Below, piece after piece: positions 1,631 through 22,557 of a DNA stretch of 32,000 nt. Made by a program: the position numbers and the translations under genes. Under the pieces are notes generated by a model. It did not search any database, had not been told where the DNA came from, and was given only the letters and a program-made list of their open reading frames with translations. The stretch is from assembly GCF_017876815.1 (NCBI RefSeq), contig NZ_JAGIOS010000002.1, positions 930,001-962,000 of the forward strand. The letters run 5' to 3'. This DNA comes from Sinorhizobium meliloti (GTDB lineage: Bacteria > Pseudomonadota > Alphaproteobacteria > Rhizobiales > Rhizobiaceae). Positions within the stretch are counted from its first letter, which is position 1; every line of letters starts with the position of its first letter.

Positions 1631-2490
1631 ATGAAACCGTTCGAATATTACGAGCCGGCGAGCCTGGCGGAGGCCAGCGATCTCATGAGGCGGCTCGGCA
1701 AGGATGCCAGCATCATCGCGGGCGGCACCGATCTGCTCGTCGAGATGAAGGAGGAGCTTCGCAGCCTCCTTCATCTCGTCAACATCAAGAAGATCCCGAA
1801 CCTGAGGGATTTTACCTATGATCCGGCCGCCGGGCTTCGCTTTGGCGCGCTGGTGACGGTCCGGGAGATAGAGACCTCGCCGCACGTCATCGGCAACTAT
1901 CCGAACCTCGCCAAGGCGGTAAGCCTCCTCGGCTCGGTACAGGTGCGCAACCGGGCAACCATTGTCGGCAACATCTGTCGCGCCTCCCCCTCGGCCGACA
2001 CGATCCCGCCCCTGATCGCCGACGGCGCCAGCCTGTCCGTCTATAATGGAGGCACCGAGCGGACCATTCTGCTCGAGGACTTCTTCACCGGTCCCGGCCG
2101 GACGGTTCTTTCGCCCGGAGATATCGTAACCGGCATATCCCTGCCGGCGCCCCGCCCGACGAGCGGCCGCGCCTACATCAAGCACGGCCGCCGCAAGGCG
2201 ATGGAACTTGCGACCGTCGGCGTTGCCGTCAGCATCGAGCATGTCGCCGGACAATGTTCGGACATCCGCATCGCGCTCGGCGCCGTGGCGCCGACCGTGA
2301 TCCGCGCCCGCAGGACCGAGGACCTTATCAGGGGACGCAGGATCGACGCGGCACTGCTGGCCGAAGCTGCGGAAAGCGCAATGCAGGAAGCCACTCCCAT
2401 CGGCAATGTGCGGGCAAGTGCGGCCTACCGCCGCGACATGGTCGGCGTGCTGACGCGCCGGGCAATCGGTTACGCCATGGGAGGTGCCCA

Positions 2491-2494
<4 letters not shown>
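1631..2494 (+). CDS. Molybdenum hydroxylase (xanthine dehydrogenase family) FAD-binding medium subunit, CoxM-like
   Basis: MKPFEYYEPASLAEASDLMRRLGKDASIIAGGTDLLVEMKE... contains the AGGTDL FAD motif. GGAGGA lies upstream of ATG 1631. The stop overlaps the next start (ATGA at 2491-2494). Confidence 0.9.
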
Positions 2495-2972: not shown

Positions 2973-2976
<4 letters not shown>

Positions 2977-5291
2977 ACACATATGAAAGGATCGATAGAG
3001 ACCTGTCCGACCGGGACTTCACCGTCGTGGGCAAGAGCGTCAAGCGTTCCGATACTCTGGAGAAGGTCACGGGGACGGCCAGATATGCAGGCGACGTCGC
3101 CTTGCCCGGCATGCTCCACGCCAAGATGAAGCGCAGCAACATCGCGCATGCGCGCATCAGGAGCATCGACACGAGCAAGGCGCTGGCGCTCAAGGGCGTC
3201 AAGGCGGTGCTGACGCACGAGAACGTGCCGCGCGTTTTGCATGCGGGCTCACCGCATCCGCGCTCGGCATCCGTTACCAAGGATCAGTACATCCTGGATG
3301 ACAGGGTGCGATATTGGGGCGAGGGCGTCGCCGCAGTCGCTGCCGTCAGCGAGGAAATCGCTGAGCGCGCGGTCGCGCTCATCGAGGTCGAGTACGAGCC
3401 CTTGCCCGGCCTCTTCACCATCGAAGCCGCATCGGTGCCCGGCGCTCCGCCGATCCATGAGAATGGTCTCGACCGGAACCAGGTGTTGCCGCCGGTCTTC
3501 GTCACCCGCGGCGACGTCGACAGGGGTTTCGCCGAAGCGGATCTGATCCTCGAGCGCGAATACGATCTCGGCCGCCCGACACCGGCCTATATGGAGCCCA
3601 ATGTCTGTGTCAGCCAGTGGGACGGCAACGGCAAGCTCACCATGTGGACCTCGACCCAGAGCGCATTCATGGTCCGCGGCACGCTTGCCGAAGTGCTCGG
3701 CGTGCCGCTGAACAAGGTACGCGTTATCGTCGATCACATGGGCGGCGGCTTCGGCGCGAAGCAGGATCTGTTTCAGAACGAGTTCCTCTGCGCCCTGCTC
3801 GCGCGACAGACGGGGCGTCCGGTCAAGATGGAGTTCAGCCGCAAGGAAACGTTCCTCGGCGGCCGCTCGCGACACCCCGGCAAGATATGGCTGAAGCAGG
3901 GCTTCACCAAAGACGGCCGGATCGTCGCACGCGAAGCCAGGGTCACCTTCAACTCCGGCGCCTACGGCTCGCACGGTCCAGGCGTCACCAATGTCGGCAC
4001 CGCAGCGCTGACCTCGCTCTACCGTTGCGAGAATGTCCGGCTGGAAGGCCGCTGCATCTATACCAATTCGCCGATCGCCGGCGCCTTTCGCGGCTATGGT
4101 GTGGTTCAGACCTACTATGCGCTCGACCTCATGATGGACGAGGCGGCCGAGAAGCTCGGCTTCGACCCGGCCGAGTTCAAGTTGATGAACGCGGTGCGCG
4201 ACGGCGACATCGCACCCTCCGGGCATCCGATCGTCGGACACGGCCTCGGGGATTGCATCCGCCGCGTCATGGAGGAGACAAACTGGCACGAATTGCGCAG
4301 GCGGGAGAAGCCGGAAACCGTCAAGCGCCGCGGGATCGGGATCGGCTGCGAAATGCACGGATCCAGTGCCTATCCGGGCATCAAGGAACAGGGCAACGCA
4401 ATCGTGAAGATGAACGAGGACGGAACGGTGACACTGATCACCGGCACCGCCGGCCTCGGCACCGGCGCGCATACAGCGCTTTCGCAGATCGTCGCCGAGG
4501 AACTCGGCGTGCCCTTCGAAGCCGTCTCGGTCGTTCAAGGGGACACCGATATCGTCCCCTGGGATATCGGTGCCTTCGCCAGCCACACGACCTATCTCGG
4601 CGGACGGGCGGCTCAGCTCGCGGCCGCCGACGTGCGCAGACAAGTGCTCGAACACGCCGCGCCCATGCTCAAGACCGAGCCCGAGAATCTCGCGATCCGG
4701 GACGGTTTCGTGGTCGTCACCAACGGCTCCAACCGCAGCATCCGGGTTTCCGAGGCCGTCGGGCCGCAACGGGGGATGCCGGCGGTGCAACTAGTCGGCG
4801 TAGGCACCTACATGCCGACGAAGTCCTACTCCTTCGCCGCCCATTTCGCCGAAGTCGAGGTGGACACCGAGACCGGCGAGGTGGCCGTTCTCGAGGTCGT
4901 TCCGGTACATGAGATCGGCAGGGTCATCCATCCGATCGCCGCGGCCGGACAGATCGAGGGTGGCATTCAGCAGGGCATCGGCCACACCCTCAGCGAGGAT
5001 TACGTCATCGACCTTACCGACGGACGTTCCCTCAATCCGAGCTTCGTCGATTACAAGATGCCCCTGTCGATGGACATGCCGTCCATCCGCACCATCATCC
5101 TCGAGACGGCACCGGATCCCGGCGGTCCCTACGGTGCCAAGGGCGTCGGCGAGGATCCGATCATCGCGATCGGGCCCGCCATCGCCAACGCCATCTACGA
5201 CGCCATCGGCGTCCGCTTCCACCACTACCCGATAACGCCCGAGCAGGTGTTGAACGCTCTCAAGTCCAAAGCCAACGAAACGAGGCAGTGA
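2973..5291 (+). CDS. Molybdenum hydroxylase molybdopterin-binding large subunit, CoxL/XdhB-like (772 aa)
   Basis: [41 protein letters not shown]... with a GGGFGAKQD motif. There is no CODH-type VAYRCSFR loop. This is an internal start within track ORF 2790..5291. Confidence 0.92.
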
Positions 5292-6340
5292 TGCAGACCA
5301 ACCATCTTCAGGACAGCAAAATTCCCGTGACCATCCTGACCGGCTTCCTCGGCGCCGGAAAGACAACGCTTCTCAACCACATATTGACGGAACGGCACGG
5401 TCACCGCATCGCGGTGATCGAGAACGAGTTCGGCGAGGTGGATGTGGACTCGGATCTCGTGCTCGCCTCCGAGGAAGAAATCTACCAGATGAAGAACGGC
5501 TGCATCTGCTGCTTCGTCGATGTGCGCAACGACCTGATCGAGGTTCTGCAGAAGCTGCTTGCCCGAAAGGACAAGTTCGACCACATCCTTGTCGAGACCA
5601 GCGGGCTTGCCGATCCGACCCCCGTCGCGACGGCTTTCTTCATCGATGACGAAATCGGCAAGCACGTAACGCTGGACGGCATCGTAACGCTGGTCGATGC
5701 CAAGCACATAGGCCAGCATATCGACGATCCCGTGCTCGATGGGCGCGACAACCAGGCTGTCGACCAGATCGTCGCCGCCGACCGCATCATCATCAACAAG
5801 ATCGACCTCGTGTCGGAATTAGAGATCGCTCCGCTCGAGCGCGGCATGCGCAAGCTCAACCAGACGGCCGAAATCGTACGCTCGAGCTACGGCAGGGTGG
5901 ATCTGTCGAGCATTCTCGGCATTTCCGGCTTCGCGCCGTCCTACGTGGCCGAGCGCGCCAAGCTGCTCGACCTCGATCATCATCACCACCACGATCATCA
6001 CCACCATGACCATCACCTGCATGACGCGACGGTCAGCTCGGAATCCTTCGTCTTCGACCGGCCTTTCGACCAGGGCCGCCTGACGGACTACCTCTCGGGC
6101 CTGCTTCGGGAGGAAGGCGACGACATCTTCCGAACCAAAGGCATCATGGCGATTGCCGGCGATCCTCGTTTCTTCGTGCTCCAGGCGGTGCACAAGCTGA
6201 TGGACTTCCGTCCGGACCATGTCTGGGGGAAGGACATGCCTTATACGAAGCTGGTCTTCATCGGTCGCAACCTCGACCGGGCGGCGCTGGAAAGAGGACT
6301 GGAGCGTTGCCTCGCCTCGGCGGGCGATACGGACAATTGA
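5288..6340 (+). CDS. COG0523 (CobW/ZigA/YeiR-type) G3E metallochaperone GTPase with a His-rich linker
   Basis: Walker [10 protein letters not shown], metal motif GCICC (5498-5512), Walker [12 protein letters not shown] and a His tract [16 protein letters not shown] (5977-6023). The GTG 5288 / ATG 5291 start overlaps the TGA of the large subunit. Confidence 0.9.
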
Positions 6341-6360
6341 TCCGGGGGAATGACGAGAAC

Positions 6361-6400
6361 CCGCCGAGGCTGGGAGGCTTCGGCGGATTTGTCGTGTTTG
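6361..6400 (+). terminator. Candidate intrinsic terminator of the plus-strand hydroxylase / COG0523 operon
   Basis: 10-bp stem CCGCCGAGGC / GCTTCGGCGG (one G-U pair), 6-nt loop, followed by ATTTGTCGTGTTTG. It starts 21 nt after the stop at 6340. Confidence 0.5.
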
Positions 6401-6473
6401 AGCGGGATTAGCGAATCCCAGTGGACGCAGCCGGATCGAAAAAGGCGAGGAGCACCCCCTTTTGATGGACCTT

Positions 6474-6514
6474 GCATAAAACCGCACCGCCCCCGGCCTG
6501 GCCGGGGGCGGTGC
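6474..6514 (-). terminator. Candidate intrinsic terminator of the minus-strand operon (after the permease), possibly bidirectional
   Basis: 13-14 bp GC stem GCACCGCCCCCGGC / GCCGGGGGCGGTGC (6484-6497 / 6501-6514), followed on the minus strand by GGUUUUAUGC. It lies 28 nt downstream of the permease stop at 6542. Confidence 0.6.
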
Positions 6515-6541
6515 ATGTTGTGCATTCACTTCCGGCTGCGC

Positions 6542-7933
6542 CTAGCCGGGATGCCGCATGGCGCCCTCACCGAGCAAATCCGGCTGCACCTCCTCGCGCG
6601 GAGGAACGCCGTTGAAGAGCAGGTTGAGCAGCACCGCCGAGAAGGTTCCGACGAGAACGCCGCTGTGGAAGAACCGGTCGATGAACTCCGGCAACTGGGC
6701 GAAGATCTTGTCGGCGACCACCGGGATCATCGCGAGGCCGACGCTGACGGCGACGATGTAGAGGTTGCGGCGGTTGTCCACGAAGTTGACGCGGGCGAGG
6801 ATCTTGACCCCCGTCGCCGAGACCATGCCGAACATCACGATCGCGGCGCCCCCGACGACATAGCTCGGTATCGACGCGGTAATGAATGCGATCTTCGGCA
6901 GGCAGCCCAGAAGGATCAGCACCACGCCGCCCGCGGCAACCGCCCAGCGGCTCATCACACCGGTGATCTGGAGCAGGCCCACATTCTGGGCATATGTGGT
7001 GTATGTGAAGGTGTTGAAGATTCCGCCGATAATGTTCCCGAGGCCATCCGTGCGCAGCCCGCGCGCCAGGTCGGCTTCGCTGATCGTGCGGCCTGCCATG
7101 TCGCCGACGGCCAGGATCTGACCGGTCGCTTCGATCATCATGACGATCATGACCGTGCAGAGCGCAACCGTCGCCCACAGGTCGAATATCGGCATGCCGA
7201 AGGCGAACGGCGTCACCACCGTGACCCAGCTAGCATCGGCGACCCCCTGGAAATCCACCTTTCCGAAAGCGACGGCGATCGCAAATCCGATCCCTATGCC
7301 GAACAGAACGGCGAGGTTTGCGAGAAATCCCTTGAGAAAGCGGGTCATCAGGAGAATGGAGACCAGCACGATCGCAGCGACCGCAAGAGCGAAGGGCTCA
7401 CCGTAGGCCGGATTGGGAATGAGCCCGTCGGGGCCTTTTATCATGGGCTGTCCGCCCGCCGCCCAGTTTACTCCGACCCGCATCAGCGACAAGCCGATGA
7501 CCAGCATCACCGTTCCGGTCACCACCGCCGGGAAGAAGCGAACCCAGCGGCTGAAATAGGGGGCGGCCAGAAGTGTGAACACGCCGGATGCGATCACCGC
7601 ACCAAGGACGCCGGGCATTCCGAGGTCCGGATCCGTGCCCGTGGCGATGATCGGGGGAACCGCGGTAAAGCCGATGCCCATCATGATCGGCAGGCGCGCG
7701 CCGACGTTCCAGACGCCGAGACACTGGATGAGGGTGACGATACCGCAGCAGAAAAGATCCGCGCTGATCAGCATGGCGATCTGATCCTTGGAGAGATTCA
7801 GCGCGCTGCCGATGATCAGGGGAACCGCGATGGCACCGGCATACATCACCAGGACATGCTGCAGGCCGAGCGCCGCCAGTTTCGGCGCGGGAAACATTGC
7901 TTCGATAGCATCACACTTCGAGTCCGTATTCAT
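6542..7933 (-). CDS. NCS2-family nucleobase:cation symporter (xanthine/uric acid permease-like)
   Basis: 463-aa polytopic membrane protein. The NCS2 signature region reads YAQNVGLLQITGVMSR. N-terminus: LGLQHVLVMYAGAIAVPLIIG. GGGAGGAG lies upstream of ATG 7933. Confidence 0.88.
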   Translation of the reverse strand: MNTDSKCDAIEAMFPAPKLAALGLQHVLVMYAGAIAVPLIIGSALNLSKDQIAMLISADLFCCGIVTLIQCLGVWNVGARLPIMMGIGFTAVPPIIATGTDPDLGMPGVLGAVIASGVFTLLAAPYFSRWVRFFPAVVTGTVMLVIGLSLMRVGVNWAAGGQPMIKGPDGLIPNPAYGEPFALAVAAIVLVSILLMTRFLKGFLANLAVLFGIGIGFAIAVAFGKVDFQGVADASWVTVVTPFAFGMPIFDLWATVALCTVMIVMMIEATGQILAVGDMAGRTISEADLARGLRTDGLGNIIGGIFNTFTYTTYAQNVGLLQITGVMSRWAVAAGGVVLILLGCLPKIAFITASIPSYVVGGAAIVMFGMVSATGVKILARVNFVDNRRNLYIVAVSVGLAMIPVVADKIFAQLPEFIDRFFHSGVLVGTFSAVLLNLLFNGVPPREEVQPDLLGEGAMRHPG

Positions 7934-8674: not shown

Positions 8675-10048
8675 CTAAGGACGGCCGAATTTCGCGAGAA
8701 TCGCCGAAGCGCGGTCGAAGGCGGCCTCGTCGATCCTGGCGAGCACGCCGTGAAAATCAGGCCCGCGGGTCGCGTCGAGGCCCATGCGGGACGTCGTACC
8801 GATACCGGATGCCGAAGGATCGAGCGCGTTGCCGGGCAGCCCTTCGATGATGACGACATCCTTGTGCGGCTGGAAATGGGCGGACATGGCCCAAAGCACG
8901 TCGGAGTCCCGCGTGATGTCGACGTCGGCATCGACCGCGATGACCGTCTTCAGATAGGCGTCCCAGCCGAGCAGCCCGAGCATGATCTGGCGGGCCTCGC
9001 CGGGCCTCGTCTGGTTGAGGGCGACATAGGCATGAAAATGCGTGCCGGATGCCGGATAGTGCACCGCCGTCACGCTCGGGAAGCGTTGCTTCAGCTTTTC
9101 CACCATCTCCGCCTCACGCGGAATACGGCCGAGATTGAGGTGTTCGGACGAGTTGCCGCCGGCAACGCTGACCAGGATTGCGTCCTTGCGGCGCAGGAAG
9201 GTCTCGACGCGAAACAGATTGTTCGTCGACCGGTCGGACGAGTAGCCGGTGAACTCTCCGAAGGGCCCCTCGGCAACCTGCGCTTCGGGCTCGATCACCC
9301 CTTCCAGGACGATTTCGGCATAGGCCGGAACCCGGATGCCGTATTTCGGCGTCCGTACCACCTCGAGCGGCTCGCCGATGAGGCCGCCGGCGACGTCGCG
9401 CTCGTCTTCACCGAACGCCAGGCGCGCCGAGGCTGCGATCATGAAGAGGGGATGTGCGCCGATGACCATGGCGACCTTCAGTTTCTCGCCGCGGTCCTTG
9501 GCCATGTTGAGCAGCCGCCACAGATGTCCGCGCGAATGCAGGCTCGTCGCCAGCTCGTTCTTCGAATGGATCATCGCGCGGTGATAGCTGAGATTGCCGG
9601 CGCCGGTTTCGGGATGCTCGGCGATGATTATGCCGCTGGTGATGTATTTCGCCCGGTCGGTCGCGAAGTGCTTCAGCATCGGCAGGGTGCCGAGGTCGAT
9701 GTCGTGCTCCTCCACGCATTCGGTGACCGGCCCGCCATCGACCAGCCGCGGCGGCAGGGCTTGCCGCGAGCGTGCCTGATAGGCTTCGTGCAGCCGGTCC
9801 TGGGAGGTCCCGAACATCCGGGCGATCCGCTCGCGCGATCCGAAGGTGTTGGCAATCACTTCGCCGCCGACGCCTTCGACGTTGCGGAAATGCAGGAGCG
9901 GCGCCCGGCCTTGCTGGTTGAGCTTCCAGATGAACGCCGACGCGTCCTGATCGTCCGTGATACAGTCTTCGATGGTGAGTACGTCTTCGGGATACGCCTT
10001 CTGGTATTCCCGGAGAAAGTAGCGGACGTCCTGGCTGCCGAACTCCAT
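8675..10048 (-). CDS. UbiD-family (prFMN-dependent) reversible decarboxylase, 457 aa
   Basis: UbiD hallmarks are present: GNLSYHRAM, MVIGAHP, ERDVAGGLIGEPLEVV and EGPFGEFTGYSS. It sits immediately upstream of ubiX on the same strand. Confidence 0.88.
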   Translation of the reverse strand: MEFGSQDVRYFLREYQKAYPEDVLTIEDCITDDQDASAFIWKLNQQGRAPLLHFRNVEGVGGEVIANTFGSRERIARMFGTSQDRLHEAYQARSRQALPPRLVDGGPVTECVEEHDIDLGTLPMLKHFATDRAKYITSGIIIAEHPETGAGNLSYHRAMIHSKNELATSLHSRGHLWRLLNMAKDRGEKLKVAMVIGAHPLFMIAASARLAFGEDERDVAGGLIGEPLEVVRTPKYGIRVPAYAEIVLEGVIEPEAQVAEGPFGEFTGYSSDRSTNNLFRVETFLRRKDAILVSVAGGNSSEHLNLGRIPREAEMVEKLKQRFPSVTAVHYPASGTHFHAYVALNQTRPGEARQIMLGLLGWDAYLKTVIAVDADVDITRDSDVLWAMSAHFQPHKDVVIIEGLPGNALDPSASGIGTTSRMGLDATRGPDFHGVLARIDEAAFDRASAILAKFGRP

Positions 10049-10189: not shown

Positions 10190-11131
10190 TCAGGCGGGAG
10201 TAGGCTGGCGCTCCTCACGTCTCAGACCCGCATAGGTATCGGTCAGGCGCGCCTGAGCTTCCTCGAGATTGCGTGGCGGAGGGGTCGGGTCGATGCCGAC
10301 GAGCTTGGCGATGTTGTTGCCGAGATAGCCCTCGAGATCTTCCTCGGAAAGGCCGAGGCCGTGGGGCGGTTCGTGGCACAGAACCTCGAGCTCTCGCAGC
10401 CACATGCCGGGCTCGTTCGGCGGCGAGTCCGTACCGAAGACGATCTTGTGTTTCGGCAGCTCTTTCGCGAATTCGACGATGCGGGATTGGAAGCACCAAC
10501 CGGACTCGCAGTAGACGTTGGGTGTGTCCATCGCCATCCAGAAGGACTCGAACGAGTAGTTGCCCCCGGTCTGGATCCCGAAATGCCCGATGATGAAATT
10601 GACCATCGGGAACTCGCGAATGATCGGATAGAACATCGTCGGAATGGTGTAAGGCCCATCACCGGTGTGGATGAGCACGACGACGCCGAGTTCCGCGCAC
10701 TTCTTCATCGCCGGGCGCAGCCAGTCGAGGGCCCGGTCGGGCCGGTAACCATGCATGTTGGCATGCAGCTTCAGCATCTTGAAGCCGTATTCCTTGACAT
10801 GGAATTCGAGCTCGGCCGCGCCGTTTTCCGGCCCCCAGCGGGGATTGTAGTTGAAGTTGCCGATGAAGCGGTCCGGGTATTTCTGGCAAAGTTCGGCGAT
10901 ATACGCCATGTAATCGCGGATGCCTTCGCGGCCCATGCGGTTGCCGTCGCGATAGCCTGTATTGCCGGGCGGCGGCTGGATGAAGCCCATGTCGATCCGG
11001 CGAGGCTTGCCGTTGATCATATAGGGTCCGTCCATCAGCTTCAGCATGCGCTCGCCGTTGAAGGGCGTGCCGGTGTGGCGCCATGCCTCGTCGACCAGAT
11101 TGGTCGGGTGGAGGTGGGTATCGATGATCAT
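10190..11131 (-). CDS. Amidohydrolase_2 (PF04909, ACMSD/LigI-type) metal-dependent hydrolase/decarboxylase, paralog A, with an intact HxH motif
   Basis: MIIDTHLHPTNLVDEAWRH... Candidate later metal/catalytic residues lie in LIHTGDG, IGHFG and FGTDSP. GGAGA lies 7 nt upstream of ATG 11131. Confidence 0.85.
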   Translation of the reverse strand: MIIDTHLHPTNLVDEAWRHTGTPFNGERMLKLMDGPYMINGKPRRIDMGFIQPPPGNTGYRDGNRMGREGIRDYMAYIAELCQKYPDRFIGNFNYNPRWGPENGAAELEFHVKEYGFKMLKLHANMHGYRPDRALDWLRPAMKKCAELGVVVLIHTGDGPYTIPTMFYPIIREFPMVNFIIGHFGIQTGGNYSFESFWMAMDTPNVYCESGWCFQSRIVEFAKELPKHKIVFGTDSPPNEPGMWLRELEVLCHEPPHGLGLSEEDLEGYLGNNIAKLVGIDPTPPPRNLEEAQARLTDTYAGLRREERQPTPA

Positions 11132-11170
11132 GCTATTTCTCCGATTTCATGAAACGCGCGTGCGGAAGGC

Positions 11171-12097
11171 TCATGCCGGCTGAAGGCTGGCATGGGTGCC
11201 GTTGAGGCGCGCCTGCGCCTCCTCCACGCTGCGTGGCGGCGGCGTCGGATCGAGACCGATCATCCGGGCGATGTTGTTGCCGAGGTAGTCCTCGAGCGTA
11301 TCCTCGTCGAGGTTCAGCCCCTGGGGCGGCTCGTGGCACAGCACCTCGAGAAGGCGCAGCCACATACCCGGCTCGTTCGGGGGCGTGTCGGTGCCGAACA
11401 GGATCTTGTGCTTGGGCAGTTCCTTGGCGAATTCGACGATGCGCGACTGCAGGCACCAGCCGGATTCGACATAGATGTTCGGCGCATCCATCGCCATCTG
11501 GAACGGCTCGAAGACATAGACGCCGCCCGTCTGCACGCCGAAATGGCCGAGGACGAAATTGACCGACGGAAACTCTCGGATGATCGGATAGAATTCGGTC
11601 GGGATGCTGTACGGTCCGTCGCCGGTATGCACCTTCACGATGAGGCCGAGGTCGGCGCATTTCCGCATCGCGGGCCGCAGCCAGTCGAGCGCCCGGTCGG
11701 GACGGTAGGCATGCATGTTCGCCTGAAGCTGCACCATCTTGAAGCCGTATTCCTTGGCGTGGTGCTCGATTTCTTCGGCGCCGTTCTGCGTGCCGTAGCG
11801 GGGATTGTAGACGAAGCAGCCGAGGAAGCGGTCCGGATATTTCTGAACGAGCTCGACGGTGTAGGACATGTAGTCCCGGATCGCCGCCTTGCCGGTGAGA
11901 TCGCCGTAACCGTCGGTGTAAATGGTGTTGCCCTGCGGGGGCTGGATGAAAGCTTTGTCGATGCGGCGCGGCTTCCCGTTCACATAATAAGGGCCGTCCA
12001 TCATCTTGAGGAGGCGCTCACCTGTAAAAGGCTCGCCATCGTGCCGCCAGGCCAGATCCACAATCTTGGTCGGGTAGCAGCTAATGTCGATAATCAT
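11171..12097 (-). CDS. Amidohydrolase_2 paralog B, with HxH replaced by SxY (MIIDISCYP); putative non-catalytic or altered-metal partner subunit
   Basis: Collinear with paralog A along its whole length, by eye roughly 70 percent identical. It retains KVHTGDG, LGHFG and FGTDTP. I moved the start to ATG 12097 (GGAGA 5 nt upstream), which aligns exactly with the MIID start of A. The track uses TTG 12121. Confidence 0.82.
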   Translation of the reverse strand: MIIDISCYPTKIVDLAWRHDGEPFTGERLLKMMDGPYYVNGKPRRIDKAFIQPPQGNTIYTDGYGDLTGKAAIRDYMSYTVELVQKYPDRFLGCFVYNPRYGTQNGAEEIEHHAKEYGFKMVQLQANMHAYRPDRALDWLRPAMRKCADLGLIVKVHTGDGPYSIPTEFYPIIREFPSVNFVLGHFGVQTGGVYVFEPFQMAMDAPNIYVESGWCLQSRIVEFAKELPKHKILFGTDTPPNEPGMWLRLLEVLCHEPPQGLNLDEDTLEDYLGNNIARMIGLDPTPPPRSVEEAQARLNGTHASLQPA

Positions 12098-12387
12098 CAG
12101 TCTCTCCAGAGTTGCCGTCAATCCAATTCACGGATTGTCCATGAGCGAAGCGCCCCGGAGTTCGACGTCAACTTTGCTGAAGGCGAGGTCAGAAAGATCC
12201 GTCGGGCTGCGGTCTGCGCGATCGCATGTCAGCAATTCCCGACCGGATGTTGTATCGTGAGATACTAACGCGGCTGACCGCTTCTACTGACGTGGAGAAT
12301 ATTAAGACAGCTTAGAGGGAATGAAAAGTACATTTCATCAAACTGATCAATTAATAAATAATTCGAAAGAATTCATTCTGTGAGCGG

Positions 12388-12903
12388 TTGCTCAGCGGAG
12401 TACAGGCATTGGACGACACCGCAAAAGAAAACGCAGAGTTTCCCGCTGCAGCCGGAATCCTCCTCGGCCTCGGTCTCGGGGGCTTCTTCGACGGCATCGT
12501 TCTGCATCAGGTGCTGCAGTGGCATCACATGCTGAGCAGCGCAGGCTTTCCACCGGACAGCCTGGAAAACCTGAGACTGAATACGTTCTTTGACGGCCTC
12601 TTCCATATGGGCACATACGTTTTCGTCGTGCTGGGCCTGATCGTTCTGTGGCGCAGGGGGCGGCGGAGACCCCTGCTTTGGTCGGCAAAGCTTATTGCCG
12701 GTACCTTCCTCATCGGGTTTGGCGGCTTCAACCTGATCGAGGGCACCGTCAACCACCAGATTCTCGGCCTGCATCATGTCAACGAGACCGTGCCGCGCGA
12801 TCAGTGGGTCTACTGGGACACAGGCTTTCTTCTCTGGGGAGCCTTGATGCTGATTGCCGGGTGGGTCCTGTACCGGTCCGGTAAACGAGACCTTTCGAGA
12901 TGA
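12388..12903 (+). CDS. DUF2243-family small integral membrane protein
   Basis: AGILLGLGLGGFFDGIVLHQVLQWHHMLSS is the motif I associate with DUF2243, and several hydrophobic segments follow. The only in-frame starts are TTG (12388 or 12409) with no clear SD, so the start is uncertain. Confidence 0.6.
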   Translation: MLSGVQALDDTAKENAEFPAAAGILLGLGLGGFFDGIVLHQVLQWHHMLSSAGFPPDSLENLRLNTFFDGLFHMGTYVFVVLGLIVLWRRGRRRPLLWSAKLIAGTFLIGFGGFNLIEGTVNHQILGLHHVNETVPRDQWVYWDTGFLLWGALMLIAGWVLYRSGKRDLSR

Positions 12904-12922
12904 ACGGGGTGGGGAACCGCTC

Positions 12923-13804
12923 TCACAGCAGCCGGTGCCGCACCAGAATTTCCCGGATTTTTGCGTCCTGCTCCTCGCTCGGAAGCAGTGCCGGCTGGCG
13001 GGAGGCGCCGACGGAGGGATCCTGCAGGTAGAGCGAGCGCTTGACGAGGGCCGGCGGGAAGCCGAGGGCGTAAAGCTCGGTGCGGAAGGCGGTGTAGATT
13101 GCCTGCTGGCGTTCCGCCTCCGCAATGTTCCCGCTGTTGAACGCGCTGAGAATGCCGGCGAGCACCTCCGGCATGGCGTTGCCGAGGCCGGAAATGCAGC
13201 CGGCCGCACCGTTCTGCAGCGACCAGAGAACCAGATGGTCGGGGCCGGAATAGACTTCGAAGCCCGGCACGTCGCGCGCTACCTGCAGATAGGCGTCGAG
13301 AGTATCCTGCGCACCGCCGGAATCCTTGATCCCGGCGATATTGCCGTGCGCGGAAAGCTTCAACGCCGTCTCCGGCTCGATATGGTTCTGGGTGCGGGAG
13401 GGAATGTCATAGAGATAGACGGGGGTCTCCACGGCATCGGCGACCGTCGAGAAGTGCCGGATCAGGCCGTCCTGCGTACAGGCGATGAAGAAGGGGGTGA
13501 TGACGGCAATGCCGCTGACGCCGATGCGGTCGAAGGCGCGCGCGAGCTGCAGCGTCTCGAAGGTCGCGGGCATGCCGGCATTGACGATGACATCGACGCG
13601 GCCGCCGACCTCGTCGACCACTTCCTCGGTGAGGCGGATCTTCTCCTCGTGCGTGAGCGCGGTGAAGTCGCCATTGGTGCCGGCGCACATGATATTGTTG
13701 CCGGCGGCGACCTGCCGGCGTACCTGGGCGCGGGTCGCCTCGTAATTGATGGTCTCGTCCTCGTTGAAGCAGGTGACGAGGGCGACGAAGGCTTTCTTGG
13801 ACAT
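12923..13804 (-). CDS. DHDPS/NanA-family class I (Schiff-base) lyase/aldolase
   Basis: GTNGDFTALTHEEK, LYDIPSRT and the Schiff-base lysine context AGIKDSGG. The start ATG overlaps the TGA of the upstream ATPase gene (TGATG at 13802-13806). Confidence 0.85.
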   Translation of the reverse strand: MSKKAFVALVTCFNEDETINYEATRAQVRRQVAAGNNIMCAGTNGDFTALTHEEKIRLTEEVVDEVGGRVDVIVNAGMPATFETLQLARAFDRIGVSGIAVITPFFIACTQDGLIRHFSTVADAVETPVYLYDIPSRTQNHIEPETALKLSAHGNIAGIKDSGGAQDTLDAYLQVARDVPGFEVYSGPDHLVLWSLQNGAAGCISGLGNAMPEVLAGILSAFNSGNIAEAERQQAIYTAFRTELYALGFPPALVKRSLYLQDPSVGASRQPALLPSEEQDAKIREILVRHRLL

Positions 13805-15450
13805 CAGTGACTCCGCTTTGGGATAAGAATGTCGGCTGCCTCGGCCGGTACCGATGCGAGGTGGCCGGCCTTTGCATCCGGATCGGGACTGAGGCTGGCG
13901 GCGAGAAGGGCGCGGGTATAGGCCTGCCGCGGCGTATCGAAGACCTCGCGGACGGTGCCGAGCTCGACGACCTCTCCCTGCTGCATGACCATGACGTAAT
14001 CGGCGAAATCGCGAACGACCGGCAGGTCATGGGCGATGAAGATGAAGGCGATCCCCATCTCGCGGCGCAGCCTGTCGAGAAGCTCGATCACCTGCGCCTG
14101 GACGGAGACGTCGAGCGCGGAAACGGCCTCGTCGCAGATGATCAGGTGCGGCTCGAGCGCAAGCGCCCGGGCAATGGCGATGCGCTGCCGCTGGCCGCCG
14201 GAAAACTGGTGCGGATAGCGGCTCATGTGCTCGGCCGAAAGACCGACCTGCACCAGGAGCTCCGCGACGCGTTCACGCCACTTTGCCTTGGGCAGGATGT
14301 CCGGATGGATGACCCATGCCTCGGAGATCAGCTGGTAGACCGTCATGCGCGGGTTGAGCGACTGGGTCGGGTCCTGGAACACCATCTGGAGGTCGCGCCT
14401 GAGCTTGTAGAGCTCTGCCGGCGAAAGCGTGAACAGGTCGCGGCCCTTCCAGAGCGCCGTGCCGCCATCCGGCTCGTCGAGACGCAAAAGGGCACGGGCA
14501 AGCGTCGATTTGCCGGAGCCGCTCTCTCCGACGACAGCCATGGTCTCGCCGGGCATCAGATCGAAGGAGATGCCCTTCAGCGCTTCGAAGGAGCCGTAGG
14601 TCTTGCGCACGTCGCGCACGCTGAGCAGGGGTTCGGCGCGCGCGCCCGGTTCGTGCATCGCGCCCTTGCCCGGGGCGGCGGCGATGAGCTTCTGCGTATA
14701 GGGATGCTGCGGGTTCTTGTAGATCTCGCGCACGGTTCCCGCTTCGACGATGGCGCCCTTTTCCATCACGACGACCCGGTCGGCGATCTCGGAGACGACG
14801 CCGAGATCGTGGGTGATGATCAGCACCGCCATGCCCGTTTCGCGCTGCAGCTCCTTCAGAAGCTTCAGCACTTCGGCCTGCACGGTCACGTCGAGCGCGG
14901 TGGTCGGTTCGTCGGCGATCAGGAGGTCCGGCCGGAGCGCCAGCGCCATGGCGATCATGACGCGCTGGCGCTGACCGCCGGAGAATTCGTGCGGATATTT
15001 GCGCATTGCCCGCTCGGGCTCGGGGATTCCGACGCGGCGAAGGAGCCGCAGCGCCTCTTCGCGCGCCTTGCTGCCGGCGAGCCCGTGAGTTGTCATGGCT
15101 TCGGAGATCTGCCAGCCGACGCTGTAGACCGGATTGAGATGGCTGAGCGGATCCTGAAAGATCATGGCGACCCGGCGGCCGTTGACCTCGCGCCGTTCCT
15201 CGGCAGGCATCGTCAGCAGGTCCCTGCCGTCGAGCAGGATTTCGCCGGCGCTGATGCGGCCCGGCGGCATGTCGATGAGGTTCATGATCGCCGAGGAGGA
15301 GACGGACTTGCCGGAACCGCTTTCGCCGAGGATCGCCAGCGTCTCGCCCTTGTCGAGGTGATAGGAGATCGACTTCACGGCATGGACCACGCCGGCCGCG
15401 GTGTGGAACTCGACGGAGAGGTTACGGACCTCGAGCAGATGTTCAGCCAT
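13804..15450 (-). CDS. ABC transporter ATP-binding protein with two fused NBDs (peptide/opine/nickel PepT type)
   Basis: 548 aa. Contains two Walker A motifs (GESGSGKS twice), two signature motifs (FSGGQRQR twice) and two Walker B motifs. Confidence 0.92.
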
Positions 15451-16366
15451 TTTTGCCGCCCTTCATTTCGAGACGCCAGCGCTGTACCGGATCGAGCGCG
15501 ATCCGCATCCAGTTGGACAGCAGGTTGAGCGACATGGTGGTGAGAATGATGGCAAGGCCGGGCCAGAAGGAGAGCCACCAGGCATTGGTGAGATATTGCC
15601 GGCCCTGCGAGATCATCAGGCCCCAGGTGATTTCCGGCGGCTGGATGCCGATGCCGAGGAAGGACAGCGCGCTCTCCGCCAGCATGACATAGGCGAAATC
15701 AAGCGTGGCGAGCGTCGTCAGCGTCGGCAGCACGACCGGCAGGATGTGGCGGAACAGGATTCGCTTGCTGGAGGCGCCCATGACCCGGGCAGCCTGCACG
15801 AACATGCGCTCGCGGATCTCGAGCACTTCGGCGCGCGTGGTGCGCAGATAGACCGGAATGCGGGTGATGGCGAGCACCAGCATGAGGTTGAGGATCGAGG
15901 AGCCGAGCACATAGAGTACGATCACCGCGATCAGCAGAGACGGGAAGGACATGATCACGTCGGCGAGACGCATGATGATCTGGCTCATGCGTGGCGAGGA
16001 AAAGCCGGCGATGAGGCCGAGAACCGTGCCAATCACCGAGGAGAGGATCACGGCGCCGGCGGCGACCATCAGGGTGTTCTGAGCGGCCACGATGATGCGG
16101 GCGAAAAGCGGACGGCCGAGCGCGTCGGCCCCCATCCACCAGACCCAGGTGCGGGTCCAGTCGAATGGCGGCAGGTTGCGGCCGCGCAGGTTCTGCTTCG
16201 TCGCGAGGTCGCCCAGCCAGGCCGGACCGATGATGGCTATGGTGAGAATGACGAGAAGGAAGATCGCCGCGCAGAGCGCGAACTTGTCCGCCAGCAGCAT
16301 GCGCATCATGCGGACCGGGAAGGACGGCTCTGCGGCGATGACATTGTCGGTGGTTGCCAGGCTCAT
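15443..16366 (-). CDS. ABC transporter permease (DppC/OppC-like)
   Basis: Polytopic protein of the binding-protein-dependent transport family (an EAA-like loop region is visible). I moved the start to ATG 16366 (MSLATTDNV), which has GGAGG 8 nt upstream and lies just after the stop of the upstream permease. Confidence 0.88.
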   Translation of the reverse strand: MSLATTDNVIAAEPSFPVRMMRMLLADKFALCAAIFLLVILTIAIIGPAWLGDLATKQNLRGRNLPPFDWTRTWVWWMGADALGRPLFARIIVAAQNTLMVAAGAVILSSVIGTVLGLIAGFSSPRMSQIIMRLADVIMSFPSLLIAVIVLYVLGSSILNLMLVLAITRIPVYLRTTRAEVLEIRERMFVQAARVMGASSKRILFRHILPVVLPTLTTLATLDFAYVMLAESALSFLGIGIQPPEITWGLMISQGRQYLTNAWWLSFWPGLAIILTTMSLNLLSNWMRIALDPVQRWRLEMKGGKNG

Positions 16367-16379
16367 GGTCGTTGCCTCC

Positions 16380-17294
16380 TCAGTGCCGGATGCGCGGATC
16401 GAGCAGCGCATAGGCGAGGTCGATGAGCACGTTCATGAGGAAGATCGCAATGGCCGTGACGAGAATCGCCGCCAGCACCACGTTGAAATCGCGTTGCAGG
16501 ATGGAATCGATCATGAGCTTGCCGACGCCGGGAAAGCCGAAGATCGTCTCGACCACGACCGCACCGTTCAGCAGGCTCGCCGCCTGGTCGCCGACCACGG
16601 TGATGACGGGCAGCATCGCATTGCGCAGCGCGTGGATGAAGATGATCGGCCCGGACTTCACGCCCTTGGCCCGCGCGGTCTTCACATAGGCCGAGGAAAG
16701 CGCGCTGACCATGGAACCGCGAACCACCTGGACGATGATGCCGAAGGGGCGGACGAAGAGAACCGCGATCGGCAGGATCCAGTGCACGACCGATCCGGTG
16801 CCGGATGTCGGCAGGATCGCGAAGTTGATCGAGAAGATGACGATGGCGACGATCGCCAGCCAGAAATCCGGGACGGACGCACCGATGAGCGAAACCATCG
16901 AGGACAGCCGGTCGAAGAAGCCGCCGGAGCGGAAGGCGCCCAGCGAGCCGACAACGATCGCCGCTCCCGTGACGAGCGTCATCGTGATGACGGCAAGCCA
17001 GAGTGTCCAGGTGAAGGCTTCGAGGACGACATCGAGTGCAGGGCGGGCCTTGCGCAGGGATTCGCCGAGGTCGCCGGTGACGACATCGCCCACATAGCGG
17101 GCGAACTGCACGAGGATCGGATCGTTCAGTCCGTGCAGCTCGCGGAACTGCTCCTTCATCTCGGCGGAGGCTTCGACGGGCAGAAACAGGGCCGCCGGGT
17201 CGCCGGTCATCCGGGACAGGAAGAATACCATGACGATCAGGCCGATGAGCGAGATCAGGCTTGCGAGCGCACGTTGGCGGATGAATCTGAGCAT
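16380..17294 (-). CDS. ABC transporter permease (DppB/OppB-like)
   Basis: MLRFIRQRALASLISLIGLIVMVFFLSRMTGDP is a typical DppB N-terminus. The track ORF 16380..17573 over-extends upstream. Confidence 0.88.
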   Translation of the reverse strand: MLRFIRQRALASLISLIGLIVMVFFLSRMTGDPAALFLPVEASAEMKEQFRELHGLNDPILVQFARYVGDVVTGDLGESLRKARPALDVVLEAFTWTLWLAVITMTLVTGAAIVVGSLGAFRSGGFFDRLSSMVSLIGASVPDFWLAIVAIVIFSINFAILPTSGTGSVVHWILPIAVLFVRPFGIIVQVVRGSMVSALSSAYVKTARAKGVKSGPIIFIHALRNAMLPVITVVGDQAASLLNGAVVVETIFGFPGVGKLMIDSILQRDFNVVLAAILVTAIAIFLMNVLIDLAYALLDPRIRH

Positions 17295-17379
17295 GGCAGC
17301 CCTCGATTTTGCATGAGGCGGCGGGGGTCCCGCCGCCGGAAGGTCTTCATTTCGAATGGCCGCTCGTCCGCGGTTCAGA

Positions 17380-18879
17380 TCATTTGATCTTGATCTCGGA
17401 GAGCTGCAGCATGGAATTCGTCGCCATCGTGGGCTTGAAGTCCAATCGCTCGGACACCCGCGAGAAACCGACCATGTGGAACAGCAGCACGTCTGCCACC
17501 ACCTCGTCATGGACGTAGGCGATGACCTCGGACCAGAGCTTGGCGCGTTCGTCTCCGACGGCAGCCGAGGCACGGGCGATCAGGTCGTCGACCTTCGGAT
17601 CGGAGAAGCCCGACTGCGTGCCTTCGGAGTCGTATTTGAAGAACATCGAGAAGGAGGGATCACCCTTCGAGTTGTCGTGCATCGCGGCAACCAGCTGGGG
17701 ACCGCGCCCTTCCTTGAAGGGCTTCGAGTAATAGACTTCGTGCTCGGCGACTTCTACGAATTTGAGCTCGACCTTGAGTCCGACCTCCTGCAACTGTGCC
17801 TGGATGGCCTCCATGATCTCGGTCACGTTGGGGAAGTTCGCGGTGCGCGCGATGATGGTGATCGGCGTGTCTACCTTGACGCCATCGGCCTTGGCCTCCT
17901 CGATGAGCTTCTTGGCCTGCTCGGGATCGTAGGGGAAGACCTTCACGTCGGGGTTCCAGCCGAGCGTCGGCGGCGGAACGATCGCGGTGGCGAGGACGGC
18001 ACTGTCGGGCACCAGCGTACCGAGGAAGGCTTCGCGGTCGATCGCAAGGTTCAGAGCGCGACGGATGCGGACGTCGTTCAACGGCTCGATATTGTGATCG
18101 ATGCGCAGATAGACGGTCTCGCTGTCGAGATAGGAGAAGTCGGTGGCCGGATTCGTCGCTTCGGTCTGCGAGATGGACGGCGACAGATCGGCTTCGCCCG
18201 TCTGGACCATGGCGGCGCGGACCGCAGGATCGGCGCGGAACAGATAGGTCGCCTCGGTGACCTCGGGCTTTTCGCCCCAGTAGTCGTCCCGGGCGGAAAG
18301 CACGATCTGCTGTCCGGGCGTCCAGTCGGTCAGCTTGTAGGGCCCGGTGCCGACGGGCTCGCGCACGAACTCCATCGACGTCTCTTCCGGCACGATGGTC
18401 AGCAACGACAGGAGCAGCGGCAGGATCGGCTGAACCGGATCGACCGTGAAATCTACGGTCGTGTCGTCGACGACGTCGATCTTAATGTTCATGCCGCCGA
18501 AATAGCGGCGCGACTCGCAGGCATTCTTGTCGCTCATCACGCGGTCGAAGCTGTACTTGACGTCCTTGGCGTTGAAGTCCGTGCCGTCGGAGAACTTCAC
18601 GCCCTTGCGCAGATTGAAGCGCCAGCTGCCATCCTCCTTCTGCTTCCAGCTTTCCGCCAGACGAGGCATCAGGCCCTTGCCCTCGCGAACGTCGAGCTCG
18701 GTCAGAGTCTCGCTGACGTTTTGCATGATGATGCGGCCGATATTCGAGCGCGTGGCCATGCAGGGTTCGAGCAGGTCCGCCTCCTCCGGCAGAACGATCT
18801 TGACCGGCCCGGATGCCGCGAAGGCCGGGGCGAGCGCGGAGCCCAGCATCAGGGCTCCCATAATCAGTGTTCTTTTCAT
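17380..18879 (-). CDS. ABC transporter periplasmic substrate-binding protein, family 5 (DppA/OppA-like)
   Basis: MKRTLIMGALMLGSALAPAFAASGPVKIV is a signal peptide. GGAGG lies 9 nt upstream of ATG 18879, and ATG 18885 is an alternative start. The track ORF extends to 19182 through the AT-rich promoter. Confidence 0.88.
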   Translation of the reverse strand: MKRTLIMGALMLGSALAPAFAASGPVKIVLPEEADLLEPCMATRSNIGRIIMQNVSETLTELDVREGKGLMPRLAESWKQKEDGSWRFNLRKGVKFSDGTDFNAKDVKYSFDRVMSDKNACESRRYFGGMNIKIDVVDDTTVDFTVDPVQPILPLLLSLLTIVPEETSMEFVREPVGTGPYKLTDWTPGQQIVLSARDDYWGEKPEVTEATYLFRADPAVRAAMVQTGEADLSPSISQTEATNPATDFSYLDSETVYLRIDHNIEPLNDVRIRRALNLAIDREAFLGTLVPDSAVLATAIVPPPTLGWNPDVKVFPYDPEQAKKLIEEAKADGVKVDTPITIIARTANFPNVTEIMEAIQAQLQEVGLKVELKFVEVAEHEVYYSKPFKEGRGPQLVAAMHDNSKGDPSFSMFFKYDSEGTQSGFSDPKVDDLIARASAAVGDERAKLWSEVIAYVHDEVVADVLLFHMVGFSRVSERLDFKPTMATNSMLQLSEIKIK

Positions 18880-19199
18880 TTGCATTCTCCTCCCTCTAGG
18901 ATCTCGTGTGTGGCGCGGCGACCTTCGTGCGCCTCGCTCCATGCAGGTATTAGCGGCAATCAGCCTCCTCGCCGCTAAGCGCTCTTCTGCCGCCGAATTG
19001 TCCAGACCATCCGATTTCTCAGCAAGTTTGTCAAATTGTTTTCGCCGATATTCTGGGATGAAAAATTTTGATCTCGAAACTAAGTAACAAAAACAATATG
19101 TTGGTAGCACATACGCCCGGACTTGAACGCGCTGCAGACAAATAGAAAACTTGACAACTTTCGAAATTCCGCGATTGTCCAATGCATGAGGAGGCTTTC

Positions 19200-20387
19200 A
19201 TGACGCCTGACGAAATCGCAAACGCAATGACCGGCAAGCTCCGGGAGGCCGGGGGAGGGCGATTGGAATCGCTCCTGCCCTCGCCCATGGTGCAGAACCA
19301 CGCAGCCTTTCTGCACAGGCTCGAGGACGGAAGTCTCGTCTGTGCCTGGTTCGGTGGGACGCTCGAGGGAAAATCCGACATTTCGATCTTCGCGTCGGTG
19401 CTCGCGCCAGGCGCCGCGCAATGGGGCGAGCCGCAGCGGCTGAGCTTCGATGCCGAGCACTCAGAGCAGAACCCGGTGCTGTTCACGGCGCCCGACGGGC
19501 GGCTCTGGCTTTTCCACACGTCGCAGCCTTCGGGCAACCAGGACGAATGCCGCATCCGTATGGCCGCAATCGAGAGGGATGCCGCTGATCCGACGAGGCT
19601 TGCCGCTTCCGAGGGGCGCTATCTCGACCTGCCGCGCGGCTGCTTTATCCGCGCGCCGCTGGTCATCAGAGATGACGGGGCCTGGCTTCTGCCGATCTTT
19701 CGCTGCATCCAGCGCCCCGGCCAGAAGTGGAACGGCAGCCACGACAATGCGGCCGTCGGCGTCTCGATCGATGGCGGCCGAAGCTGGCAGCTCGCCGATC
19801 TCGACGGCTCGATCGGTTGCGTGCACATGAGCCCGGTGCGCGTCGGCGACACCGGCTACGCCGCTTTCTTCCGCCGCCGCCAAGCGGACCAGGTCTATCG
19901 CGTCGAGAGCGTCGACGGCGGGCGGACGTGGAGCCTGCCGGCGCCGACCGACGTGCCGAACAACAATTCCTCCATCGCGGTCGTCAGGCTCAGGGAAGGC
20001 CGGCTGGCGATGATCTGCAATCCGGTGAATGCGGCCCTTTGGGCCGACCGGCGCGCATCGCTTTACGACGAGCTCGGAGACGACGACGGCCGGCCCGATG
20101 CCGATCCTTCAGGCGGCTGCGTGCCGATCTGGGGCGTGCCGCGGGCGCCGGTGAGCGTCTGCCTGTCGGCCGACGACGGCCGGACCTTCCCCGATCGTAT
20201 CGCGATCGAGGGCGGACCGGGGACCTGCCTTTCCAACAATTCGACCGATGGACACAACAAGGAGATGTCTTATCCGTGGCTCCTGGAAGGGGACGACGGC
20301 AGCCTGCACGTCGCCTACACCTACCATCGGCGGGCAATCAAATATGTCCGTCTGCCGCCCGGGTGGGCCGACGAGGGGAGAAACTGA
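19200..20387 (+). CDS. BNR/Asp-box repeat protein (sialidase-like beta-propeller, BNR_2 type) with no signal peptide
   Basis: Asp-boxes [16 protein letters not shown] and SADDGRTF. N-terminus: [27 protein letters not shown] lies upstream of ATG 19200. The stop overlaps the PdxA start (TGATG). Confidence 0.8.
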
Positions 20388-21352
20388 TGAGCAAGATTAT
20401 CGGCATCACCATGGGCGATCCCTGTGGCGTCGGACCGGAGATCACGGTCCGATCGCTTGCTGAGATGTCGGCTGCTGACCGGGAGGCGACCCGTATCTAC
20501 GGCAACCTCGCGACGCTCGAGGCTGCAAGGGAGGCGCTTGGTCTCTCGGTCGATCTTCAGCCCTATGTCGTCGACCTTACGGTCGAGGGCGCGCCGCTCC
20601 CCTGGGGTAGCCTTTCGGCAGTGGCAGGCGACGCAGCCTTCCGGTTCATCGAGCGCGCGGTACGCGATGCCGAGGCCGGCAACATCGGCTGCATCGTCAC
20701 GGCGCCGATCAACAAGGAAGCACTCAATATGGCAGGCCACCATTACGACGGCCATACCGGCATGCTGCGCAGCCTGACCGGATCGAGCGCCGCCTATATG
20801 CTGCTTGCCTCCGAGCGCCTCAAGGTCATTCACGTCTCGACCCATGTGTCGCTCAAGGAGGCGATCGGCCGCGCCACCACCGAGCGGGTCCTTGCCACGA
20901 TCCGCGCCGGCAACGCGCACCTGAAGCGCATCGGCTACGAGCACCCGCGCATCGCGGTCGCCGGCATCAACCCGCATTGCGGCGAGAACGGCCTGTTCGG
21001 CACGGAAGACGATGATCAGATCGGGCCTGCGGTGGCGGCCGCGCGTGAAGAAGGCATCGACGTGCAGGGGCCGATCTCTGCCGATACCGTGTTCCATCGC
21101 GCCTATTCGGGAGGCTTCGATCTGGTCGTCGCGCAATATCACGACCAGGGTCATATCCCGATCAAGCTGGTCGCCTTCGATACGGCGGTCAACGTATCCG
21201 TAGATCTTCCGATCGACCGCACCTCCGTCGATCACGGGACTGCCTTCGATATTGCCGGAAAGGGTATCGCCAATCACGGCAACCTGAATTCCGCGATCGC
21301 CTATGCGCGCAAGCTCGTGGCCGGTCAGGCAAGCAGAAAGGCAGCGTCATGA
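20387..21352 (+). CDS. PdxA-family NAD-dependent 4-phospho-hydroxyacid dehydrogenase (PdxA2-like)
   Basis: [19 protein letters not shown]... and the HYDGHTGML and [12 protein letters not shown] motifs are typical of PdxA. This is an internal start within track ORF 19727..21352. Confidence 0.88.
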
Positions 21353-22455: not shown

Positions 22456-22494
22456 GGCCTGTTGAGATACGGGATACCCGCCGCGGCTTGTTGA

Positions 22495-22530
22495 TCTCCT
22501 CATCCCTGTGTTCGTCACAGGGATCCAGCC
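22495..22530. repeat. Palindromic intergenic repeat (ATCCCTGTG-N5-CACAGGGAT), probably a dispersed Rhizobiales repeat and/or a bidirectional terminator hairpin
   Basis: 9-bp arms at 22502-22510 and 22516-22524, between the convergent Fe-ADH and GntR genes. From memory, the surrounding string CTCATCCCTGTG..CACAGGGATCCAGC resembles a repeat common in Rhizobium/Agrobacterium intergenic DNA. Confidence 0.5.
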
Positions 22531-22557
22531 AGACCAAGTCGGGGCGGGGTCCTGCCT

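Follow-up and report, generated by a model that had tools for sequence, protein, structure and literature searches.

A pseudoenzyme paralog and its catalytic partner: the probable two-subunit 6,7-dihydroxylumazine isomerase of the Sinorhizobium meliloti megaplasmid pSymB

Two adjacent amidohydrolase genes, only one of which encodes the metal-binding histidines typical of its fold, were studied in a stretch of 32,000 nucleotides of Sinorhizobium meliloti DNA (contig NZ_JAGIOS010000002.1, positions 930,001 to 962,000), hereafter called the window. The window belongs to the megaplasmid pSymB, and across 6 kb it matches strain SM11 (NC_017326.1) with 100% identity. The two genes, named B and A in the order in which they lie on their strand, very probably encode the alpha and beta subunits, respectively, of 6,7-dihydroxylumazine isomerase (DHLI), and are part of a pSymB cluster for the catabolism of pterins and lumazines. 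The activity of DHLI is the one formerly called 'tetrahydroxypteridine cycloisomerase'. This two-subunit enzyme was already described and explained in 2025, and the S. meliloti copy is an ortholog in a lineage listed in that study (PMC12391406). Gene identities, orthology, the pairing of alpha with beta, selection and the residues lost by alpha were computed here; stoichiometry, activity, dependence on Zn or Co and the behaviour of mutants are taken from work on Cupriavidus proteins (PMC12391406), and we infer that the S. meliloti proteins act as the Cupriavidus enzyme does.

The reference system is 'cluster I' of Cupriavidus sp. LA-1, by which lumazine and pterins are degraded to xanthine (Doi, Maeda, Takaya, Commun Biol 2025, PMC12391406). 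In this system a three-subunit Mo-hydroxylase, lumazine dehydrogenase (LuDH), yields 6,7-dihydroxylumazine, which DHLI, described as an 'amidohydrolase signature isomerase', converts into xanthine-8-carboxylate, and a UbiD enzyme together with UbiX then decarboxylates xanthine-8-carboxylate to xanthine (PMC12391406). Two subunits make up the DHLI purified from LA-1 cells, and the recombinantly produced enzyme is an alpha2/beta2 heterotetramer built from two Amidohydro_2 paralogs (PMC12391406). The putative Zn ligands of the beta subunit (LA1_0151) are His6, His8 and Asp235; both histidines are absent from the alpha subunit (LA1_0152), and the members of the LA-1 pair are 65% similar (PMC12391406). 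Beta without alpha is inactive, and alpha is essential though itself inactive; mutants of the beta histidines are inactive even with alpha present, and the enzyme is also inactive when the two missing histidines are put into alpha (PMC12391406). Activity depends on whether the expression culture contains Zn or Co, no ring-opened intermediate was detected, and the authors view beta as the sole catalytic centre and judge alpha to be devoid of metal-dependent activity (PMC12391406). With the GTP-binding protein LA1_0143, recombinant DHLI is more soluble and more active, and orthologs of this protein always accompany beta (PMC12391406). In Rhizobiales and Rhodobacterales the cluster is found on a plasmid or on the chromosome, with a CDA-like deaminase, and beta-only clusters are present in Actinomycetota (PMC12391406).

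A first-pass annotation of the window, made from the sequence without database searches, had proposed that the two genes form a heterodimer of one catalytic and one pseudoenzyme subunit, and had regarded such an arrangement as unusual for the family. The division into a catalytic and a pseudoenzyme subunit is supported both by the LA-1 experiments and by the conservation tests given below, and the products do form a hetero-oligomer in LA-1, although as an alpha2/beta2 heterotetramer and not as a simple dimer (PMC12391406). The arrangement itself is no longer new, having been published for Cupriavidus in 2025 (PMC12391406).

The two genes of the pair are as follows:

11171-12097, minus strand: gene B (paralog B), very probable DHLI alpha subunit; 308 amino acids, N-terminus MIIDISCYPT, PF04909 match of 135.4 bits

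10190-11131, minus strand: gene A (paralog A), very probable DHLI beta subunit; 313 amino acids, N-terminus MIIDTHLHP, PF04909 match of 172.8 bits

They lie on the same strand, alpha first and then beta, and are separated by a spacer of 39 bp. Gene B starts with an ATG; a TTG located upstream, at position 12121, is an unlikely start, because all orthologs begin with MIID. In a BLASTP alignment the two proteins are identical at 221 of 306 residues (72%), with a single 2-residue gap and E = 5e-177, and at the nucleotide level their aligned codons are 74% identical. The 15-mer GATGTTGTTGCCGAG is present in exactly two copies, at 10310 and 11270, with 0 expected by chance. These values agree with the initial estimate of about 70% protein identity and clearly related DNA. 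Both proteins score above the gathering threshold of PF04909 (Amidohydro_2), which is 26.4 bits. The match of gene A spans the full profile, whereas that of gene B starts at residue 75 and covers profile positions 64-289, a late start that is consistent with its altered N-terminus.

The motifs noted at first, DTHLH in one paralog and DISCY in the other followed by HTGDG, GHFG and FGTD(S/T)P in both, were all recovered by alignment and motif scan. In gene A they are H6-L-H8, HTGDG (155), GHFG (182) and FGTDSP (232), and in gene B S6-C7-Y8, HTGDG (157), GHFG (184) and FGTDTP (234). The N-terminal alignment of A and B contains no gaps, and the HxH is therefore replaced in B and not shifted. Inspection of the whole 308-residue protein revealed no HxH anywhere in B, and its sole HH (residues 112-113) is inside a predicted helix and is not conserved. 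The earlier statement that these histidines are lost is thus correct. The ligand-type residues of gene A are H6, H8, H155, H183 and D235, so that a complete mononuclear metal site, made of the strand-1 HxH, a strand-5 His and the strand-8 Asp, is present in A. It is absent in B, which lacks His6, His8, Lys121 and His123 (beta numbering), with S6 and Y8 in place of the two N-terminal histidines, and which retains H129, H157, H185, E211 and D237. Both subunits are named 'amidohydrolase family protein' in the annotations of the S. meliloti DHLI genes that were examined, plasmid annotations included, and NCBIfam (release 20) contains no model for either paralog; annotation is lagging behind the 2025 characterisation of DHLI.

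The assignment to DHLI relies on the cluster as well as on the proteins. Gene for gene, the cluster of the window is the published one: two Amidohydro_2 proteins, UbiD, UbiX, CobW, the FAD, 2Fe-2S and Moco subunits, GntR, a CDA-like deaminase and an NCS2 permease. H6, H8 and D235 of gene A (the latter in FGTD, 232-235) coincide in residue number with the putative Zn ligands of LA1_0151. Cupriavidus gilardii and a multispecies Cupriavidus pair were used as a proxy for LA-1, in place of the LA-1 sequences. The alpha subunit of the window is 78% identical to that of C. gilardii and the beta subunit 86%, and the beta proteins of S. meliloti and Cupriavidus fall within one 90% cluster. The C. gilardii locus comprises alpha, beta, UbiD, UbiX, CobW, an NCS2 permease and an Amidohydro_1 protein, and no Mo-hydroxylase was found within its flanks.

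Conservation of the pair was analysed after a genome scan, in which a relative of the query was found to be encoded in 484 species genomes. Synteny was assessed in 80 kept loci, and the motifs were counted over 81 loci for alpha and 79 for beta. Wherever the contig permits, alpha is followed by beta, and UbiD comes next in nearly all of the 80 loci, so that the pairing of A with B is indeed conserved in orthologous loci. The gap between alpha and beta ranges from -4 to +47 bp. All alpha loci carry xSCYPT (81/81) and all beta loci THLHPT (79/79), and the alpha reading frame is intact throughout (81/81). The median pairwise omega (dN/dS) is 0.137 for alpha and 0.101 for beta, and both subunits are under strong purifying selection. 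The dS between A and B is about 1.1, which indicates an old duplication. By three identity-based clustering methods the alpha and beta sequences separate perfectly, the nearest neighbour of each sequence being always of its own type (0 sequences with a nearest neighbour in the other type). Identity among alpha proteins is at least 72% across Alpha- and Betaproteobacteria, and closely related Pseudomonas entries were present in the protein search. At 50% clustering the whole alpha and beta family is reduced to one full-length representative, and the next full-length relatives are at most 40% identical.

These distant relatives also indicate in which direction the two types have diverged. All of those with at most 40% identity keep H6, H8, K121, H155, H183, E209 and D235, and H123 is found in four of the five examined. 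Since distant relatives keep the ancestral residues, S6, Y8, Q123 and Q125 of alpha are derived losses. At twenty-two sites alpha and beta each have one invariant residue, which is not the same in the two types. Several of these sites (6, 8, 94, 123, 125 and 238) are located at strand C-termini that line the barrel pocket predicted by AlphaFold single-chain models, for which the pTM was 0.84 with both subunits.

Natural variation at residues 6-8 of alpha bears on what this subunit may do. Among the alpha clusters SCY is the most frequent form (95), followed by ACH (9), SAY (2), SCF (2) and ACY (2). The ACH form, with the N-terminus MIIDSACHPT (A6, C7, H8), was observed in two genome loci, L084 (7096-8016) and L085 (6722-7642). 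The alpha proteins of this lineage have a histidine as residue 125 and read FGSSTPP where FGTDTPP is usual, with loss of the strand-8 Asp, and are still paired with a canonical beta, followed by UbiD. A metal or catalytic site would not be expected to tolerate such replacements of S6, C7, Y8 and the Asp, and the comparison of these sequences therefore favours a structural or assembly role for alpha over a metal or catalytic site.

A degenerate unit next to a catalytic one was also seen outside the window, in protein P0130 (545 amino acids, 31% identity), a distant relative that is a natural fusion of two Amidohydro_2 domains. In domain 1 of this protein HxH, K, H, H, H, E and D are all retained; domain 2 reads H-V-Q, and its His residues of strands 5 and 6 and the Asp of strand 8 have been lost. 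Judging from this sequence, other members of this branch of Amidohydro_2 may also combine a catalytic with a degenerate unit, in the form of a fused protein.

A more direct contribution of alpha to the reaction, in the context of the DHLI assignment, is possible, although we consider it doubtful. Alpha would then not be inert, and its conserved, remodelled pocket (S6, Y8, Q123, Q125, V193 and Q200, together with H157, H185 and D237) or the loop after strand 6 would be directly involved, either by lending residues across the interface to the active site of beta, in the way that an adjoining subunit of ACMSD does, or by metal-free binding of a ring-opened intermediate and closure of the imidazole.

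We consider it improbable that alpha forms a second, metal-independent site that binds the substrate or catalyses the half-reaction of ring closure and dehydration, leaving the Zn-dependent attack on the amide to beta. Such a site would fit with the retention of H129, H157, H185, E211 and D237 in nearly all of about 75 alpha sequences from genomes, with the type-specific fixed sites at the strand ends of the pocket and with the low omega of alpha (0.14), and the inactivity of the enzyme with restored histidines implies that the N-terminal residues of alpha matter (PMC12391406). However, natural variants replace S6 (by A), C7 (by A) and Y8 (by F or H), the ACH lineage has H125 and has lost the strand-8 Asp while remaining beside a canonical beta and UbiD, and in the LA-1 enzyme no ring-opened intermediate was seen and beta is regarded as the sole catalytic centre (PMC12391406).

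The first-pass annotation had offered, as an alternative to a pseudoenzyme, a non-canonical metal site in B formed by Cys7 and/or Tyr8 with the retained His and Asp residues; this now appears very unlikely. The S-C-Y triplet is fixed in 81/81 genome loci, H157, H185 and D237 are retained in alpha, and no per-subunit metal analysis came up in the Cupriavidus study when its text was searched for ICP and zinc content (PMC12391406), all of which would be compatible with such a site. Against this, C7 occupies the x position of the strand-1 HxH, both structural models put residues 6-7 in strand 1, and the geometry of a strand would turn the side chain of C7 away from those of residues 6 and 8. Moreover, the SAY, SCF, ACY and ACH variants occur in otherwise intact alpha genes, with A6, A7, F8 or H8, and the strand-8 Asp is missing from one alpha lineage. 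In LA-1 the beta histidine mutants are dead despite the presence of alpha, which is concluded to have no metal-dependent activity (PMC12391406).

That B is a decaying duplicate without function, as its loss of four ancestral active-site residues (H6, H8, K121 and H123) could suggest, is refuted by the intact frames (81/81 loci), the omega of 0.14, the identity of at least 72% between alpha proteins across Alpha- and Betaproteobacteria and the essential role of alpha in Cupriavidus (PMC12391406), in agreement with the earlier view that simple decay does not account for this gene.

Several points weigh against the assignment of the pair to DHLI. The alphaproteobacterial clusters differ from that of LA-1 in the type of deaminase, which is CDA-like in the former and another type of pterin deaminase in LA-1 (PMC12391406). 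The biochemical evidence comes from the Cupriavidus proteins, the S. meliloti proteins being known from their sequences, and orthology was judged against Cupriavidus genomes other than LA-1. No record of S. meliloti growing on lumazine or pterins was found in the literature searched.

With DHLI as the preferred reading, the pathway described for Cupriavidus can tentatively be transposed to the S. meliloti locus. A CDA-like deaminase would first convert pterins into lumazines, and the Mo-hydroxylase LuDH would then oxidise lumazine to 7-hydroxylumazine and further to 6,7-dihydroxylumazine. DHLI would contract the pyrazine ring of the latter to give xanthine-8-carboxylate, from which UbiD, using prenyl-FMN supplied by UbiX, would produce xanthine. 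The single putative Zn site of DHLI would be located in beta (gene A) and consist of H6, H8 and D235, probably with H155, and a metal-bound hydroxide of beta would attack the C7 amide carbonyl. Alpha (gene B) would be an ancient, conserved paralog with no activity of its own, needed for the assembly of an active alpha2beta2 enzyme, and the COG0523 GTPase would aid the folding of DHLI and/or the insertion of Zn.

The genes B, A, UbiD, UbiX and NCS2 permease follow each other in this order in an operon on the minus strand. The other genes of the cluster are listed below, from the pair towards the left end of the window; the coordinates of the XOR-family subunits were obtained via the annotation of strain ml66.

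8675-10048, minus strand: UbiD-family decarboxylase, probable xanthine-8-carboxylate decarboxylase (XCDC, counterpart of LA1_0150); UbiD_N, UbiD and UbiD_C, TIGR00148; function from PMC12391406

8012-8659, minus strand: UbiX flavin prenyltransferase, which makes prenyl-FMN for UbiD (counterpart of LA1_0144); PF02441, NF004685 at 272.5 bits and synteny; function from PMC12391406

6542-7933, minus strand: NCS2 nucleobase:cation symporter; PF00860, TIGR03173; in the cluster at many loci

5288-6340, plus strand: CobW/COG0523 GTPase with a His-rich stretch (counterpart of LA1_0143); cobW and CobW_C; adjoins the pair in most loci

2973-5291, plus strand: molybdopterin-binding large subunit of an XOR-family hydroxylase, probable lumazine dehydrogenase LuDH; Ald_Xan_dh_C, MoCoBD_1 and MoCoBD_2; function from PMC12391406

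2491-2976, plus strand: [2Fe-2S] subunit of the XOR-family hydroxylase; Fer2_2 and Fer2

1631-2494, plus strand: FAD-binding subunit of the XOR-family hydroxylase; FAD_binding_5 and CO_deh_flav_C

801-1580, plus strand: GntR/FCD-family regulator; GntR and FCD; in an equivalent position in the Paracoccus plasmid cluster

1-333, minus strand: cytosine-deaminase-like amidohydrolase, 5' part with a VDVHQHLDK motif, the gene leaving the window; translation and start-codon scan; 'amidohydrolase family protein' in strain ml66

The NCS2 permease is a candidate importer of pteridines or xanthine, the GntR/FCD protein is probably the regulator of the cluster, and the cytosine-deaminase-like protein is a probable pterin deaminase. 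A long His-rich run in COG0523 GTPases is typical of Zn metallochaperones. The His-rich run of the CobW protein of the window agrees with the helper role reported for LA1_0143, and this GTPase is a probable Zn-insertion and folding helper for DHLI. An equivalent cluster is present on a Paracoccus plasmid.

An inverted repeat, GATTGT-TG-ACAATC, lies at about 768-781, just 5' of the GntR/FCD gene, and from its sequence could be an operator. No similar site was found upstream of the alpha gene, and a search for a common operator motif across the intergenic regions of the cluster gave scattered 9-mers only and nothing convincing. The spacer between CobW and NCS2 (6340-6542) is about 185 bp shorter than in S. 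meliloti ml66; the coordinate offset between the window and the ml66 locus (L001) shifts from about 813-816 to 1001 across this spacer, which points to an indel between the strains.

On the other side of the pair, from 12388 to 23259, the window encodes a DUF2243 membrane protein, a DHDPS-family protein, a BNR/sialidase-like protein, PdxA, an Fe-alcohol dehydrogenase, a second GntR/FCD regulator and a peptide-type ABC transporter (fused ATPase, two permeases and an SBP_bac_5 binding protein). These genes appear unrelated to pteridine breakdown and may form a separate catabolic cluster. The region from the alpha gene to the DHDPS gene is rearranged in S. medicae.

The amidohydrolase superfamily is better known for homo-oligomers, and the DHLI pair is a clear natural case in which a catalytic subunit cannot work without its dead paralog. 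The cluster is the mark of a widespread pathway that lets bacteria of the soil and rhizosphere recycle pterins and lumazines, compounds that include folate breakdown products and insect pigments, to xanthine. For S. meliloti, the assignment gives a function to a pSymB cluster.

Compared with the DHLI system of LA-1, the S. meliloti locus has the same adjacent Amidohydro_2 paralogs, with His6, His8 and Asp235 in beta and without both histidines in alpha, and the same neighbours, namely UbiD, UbiX, a CobW GTPase, an XOR-family hydroxylase and a deaminase. It differs from the LA-1 cluster in its host and replicon, S. meliloti pSymB, and in the NCS2 permease being located inside the operon.

The first-pass annotation had placed the two proteins with ACMSD-type enzymes. 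The LA-1 enzyme is an isomerase, converting 6,7-dihydroxylumazine into xanthine-8-carboxylate, and not a decarboxylase (PMC12391406). The best PDB matches found by Foldseek were LigJ, LigW, gamma-resorcylate decarboxylase and ACMSD, with a TM of about 0.6 and 14-18% identity. A phmmer search of gene A against the PDB sequences gave partial, weak matches to LigW, CAC3332 and LigJ (best E = 3e-7), an alpha-only profile retrieved nothing from the PDB at E <= 0.001, and the PDB contains no DHLI structure. Membership in the ACMSD-type decarboxylases was rejected on the basis of these partial matches, of the low identity at that TM and of the identity of at most 40% with the next full-length relatives. 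The four enzymes matched by Foldseek are homo-oligomers that act as decarboxylases or hydratases. DHLI shares with them the (beta/alpha)8 fold and, in its beta subunit, the HxH of strand 1, the His of strands 5 and 6 and the Asp of strand 8; unlike them, it is an isomerase that contracts a ring, and its hetero-tetramer includes a dedicated dead subunit.

Another member of Amidohydro_2, the 2-pyrone-4,6-dicarboxylate lactonase LigI, is metal-independent, which indicates that a PF04909 barrel can work without a metal. LigI keeps its histidines and simply binds no metal, whereas alpha has replaced them; by this precedent, a metal-free role of the alpha subunit would be conceivable.

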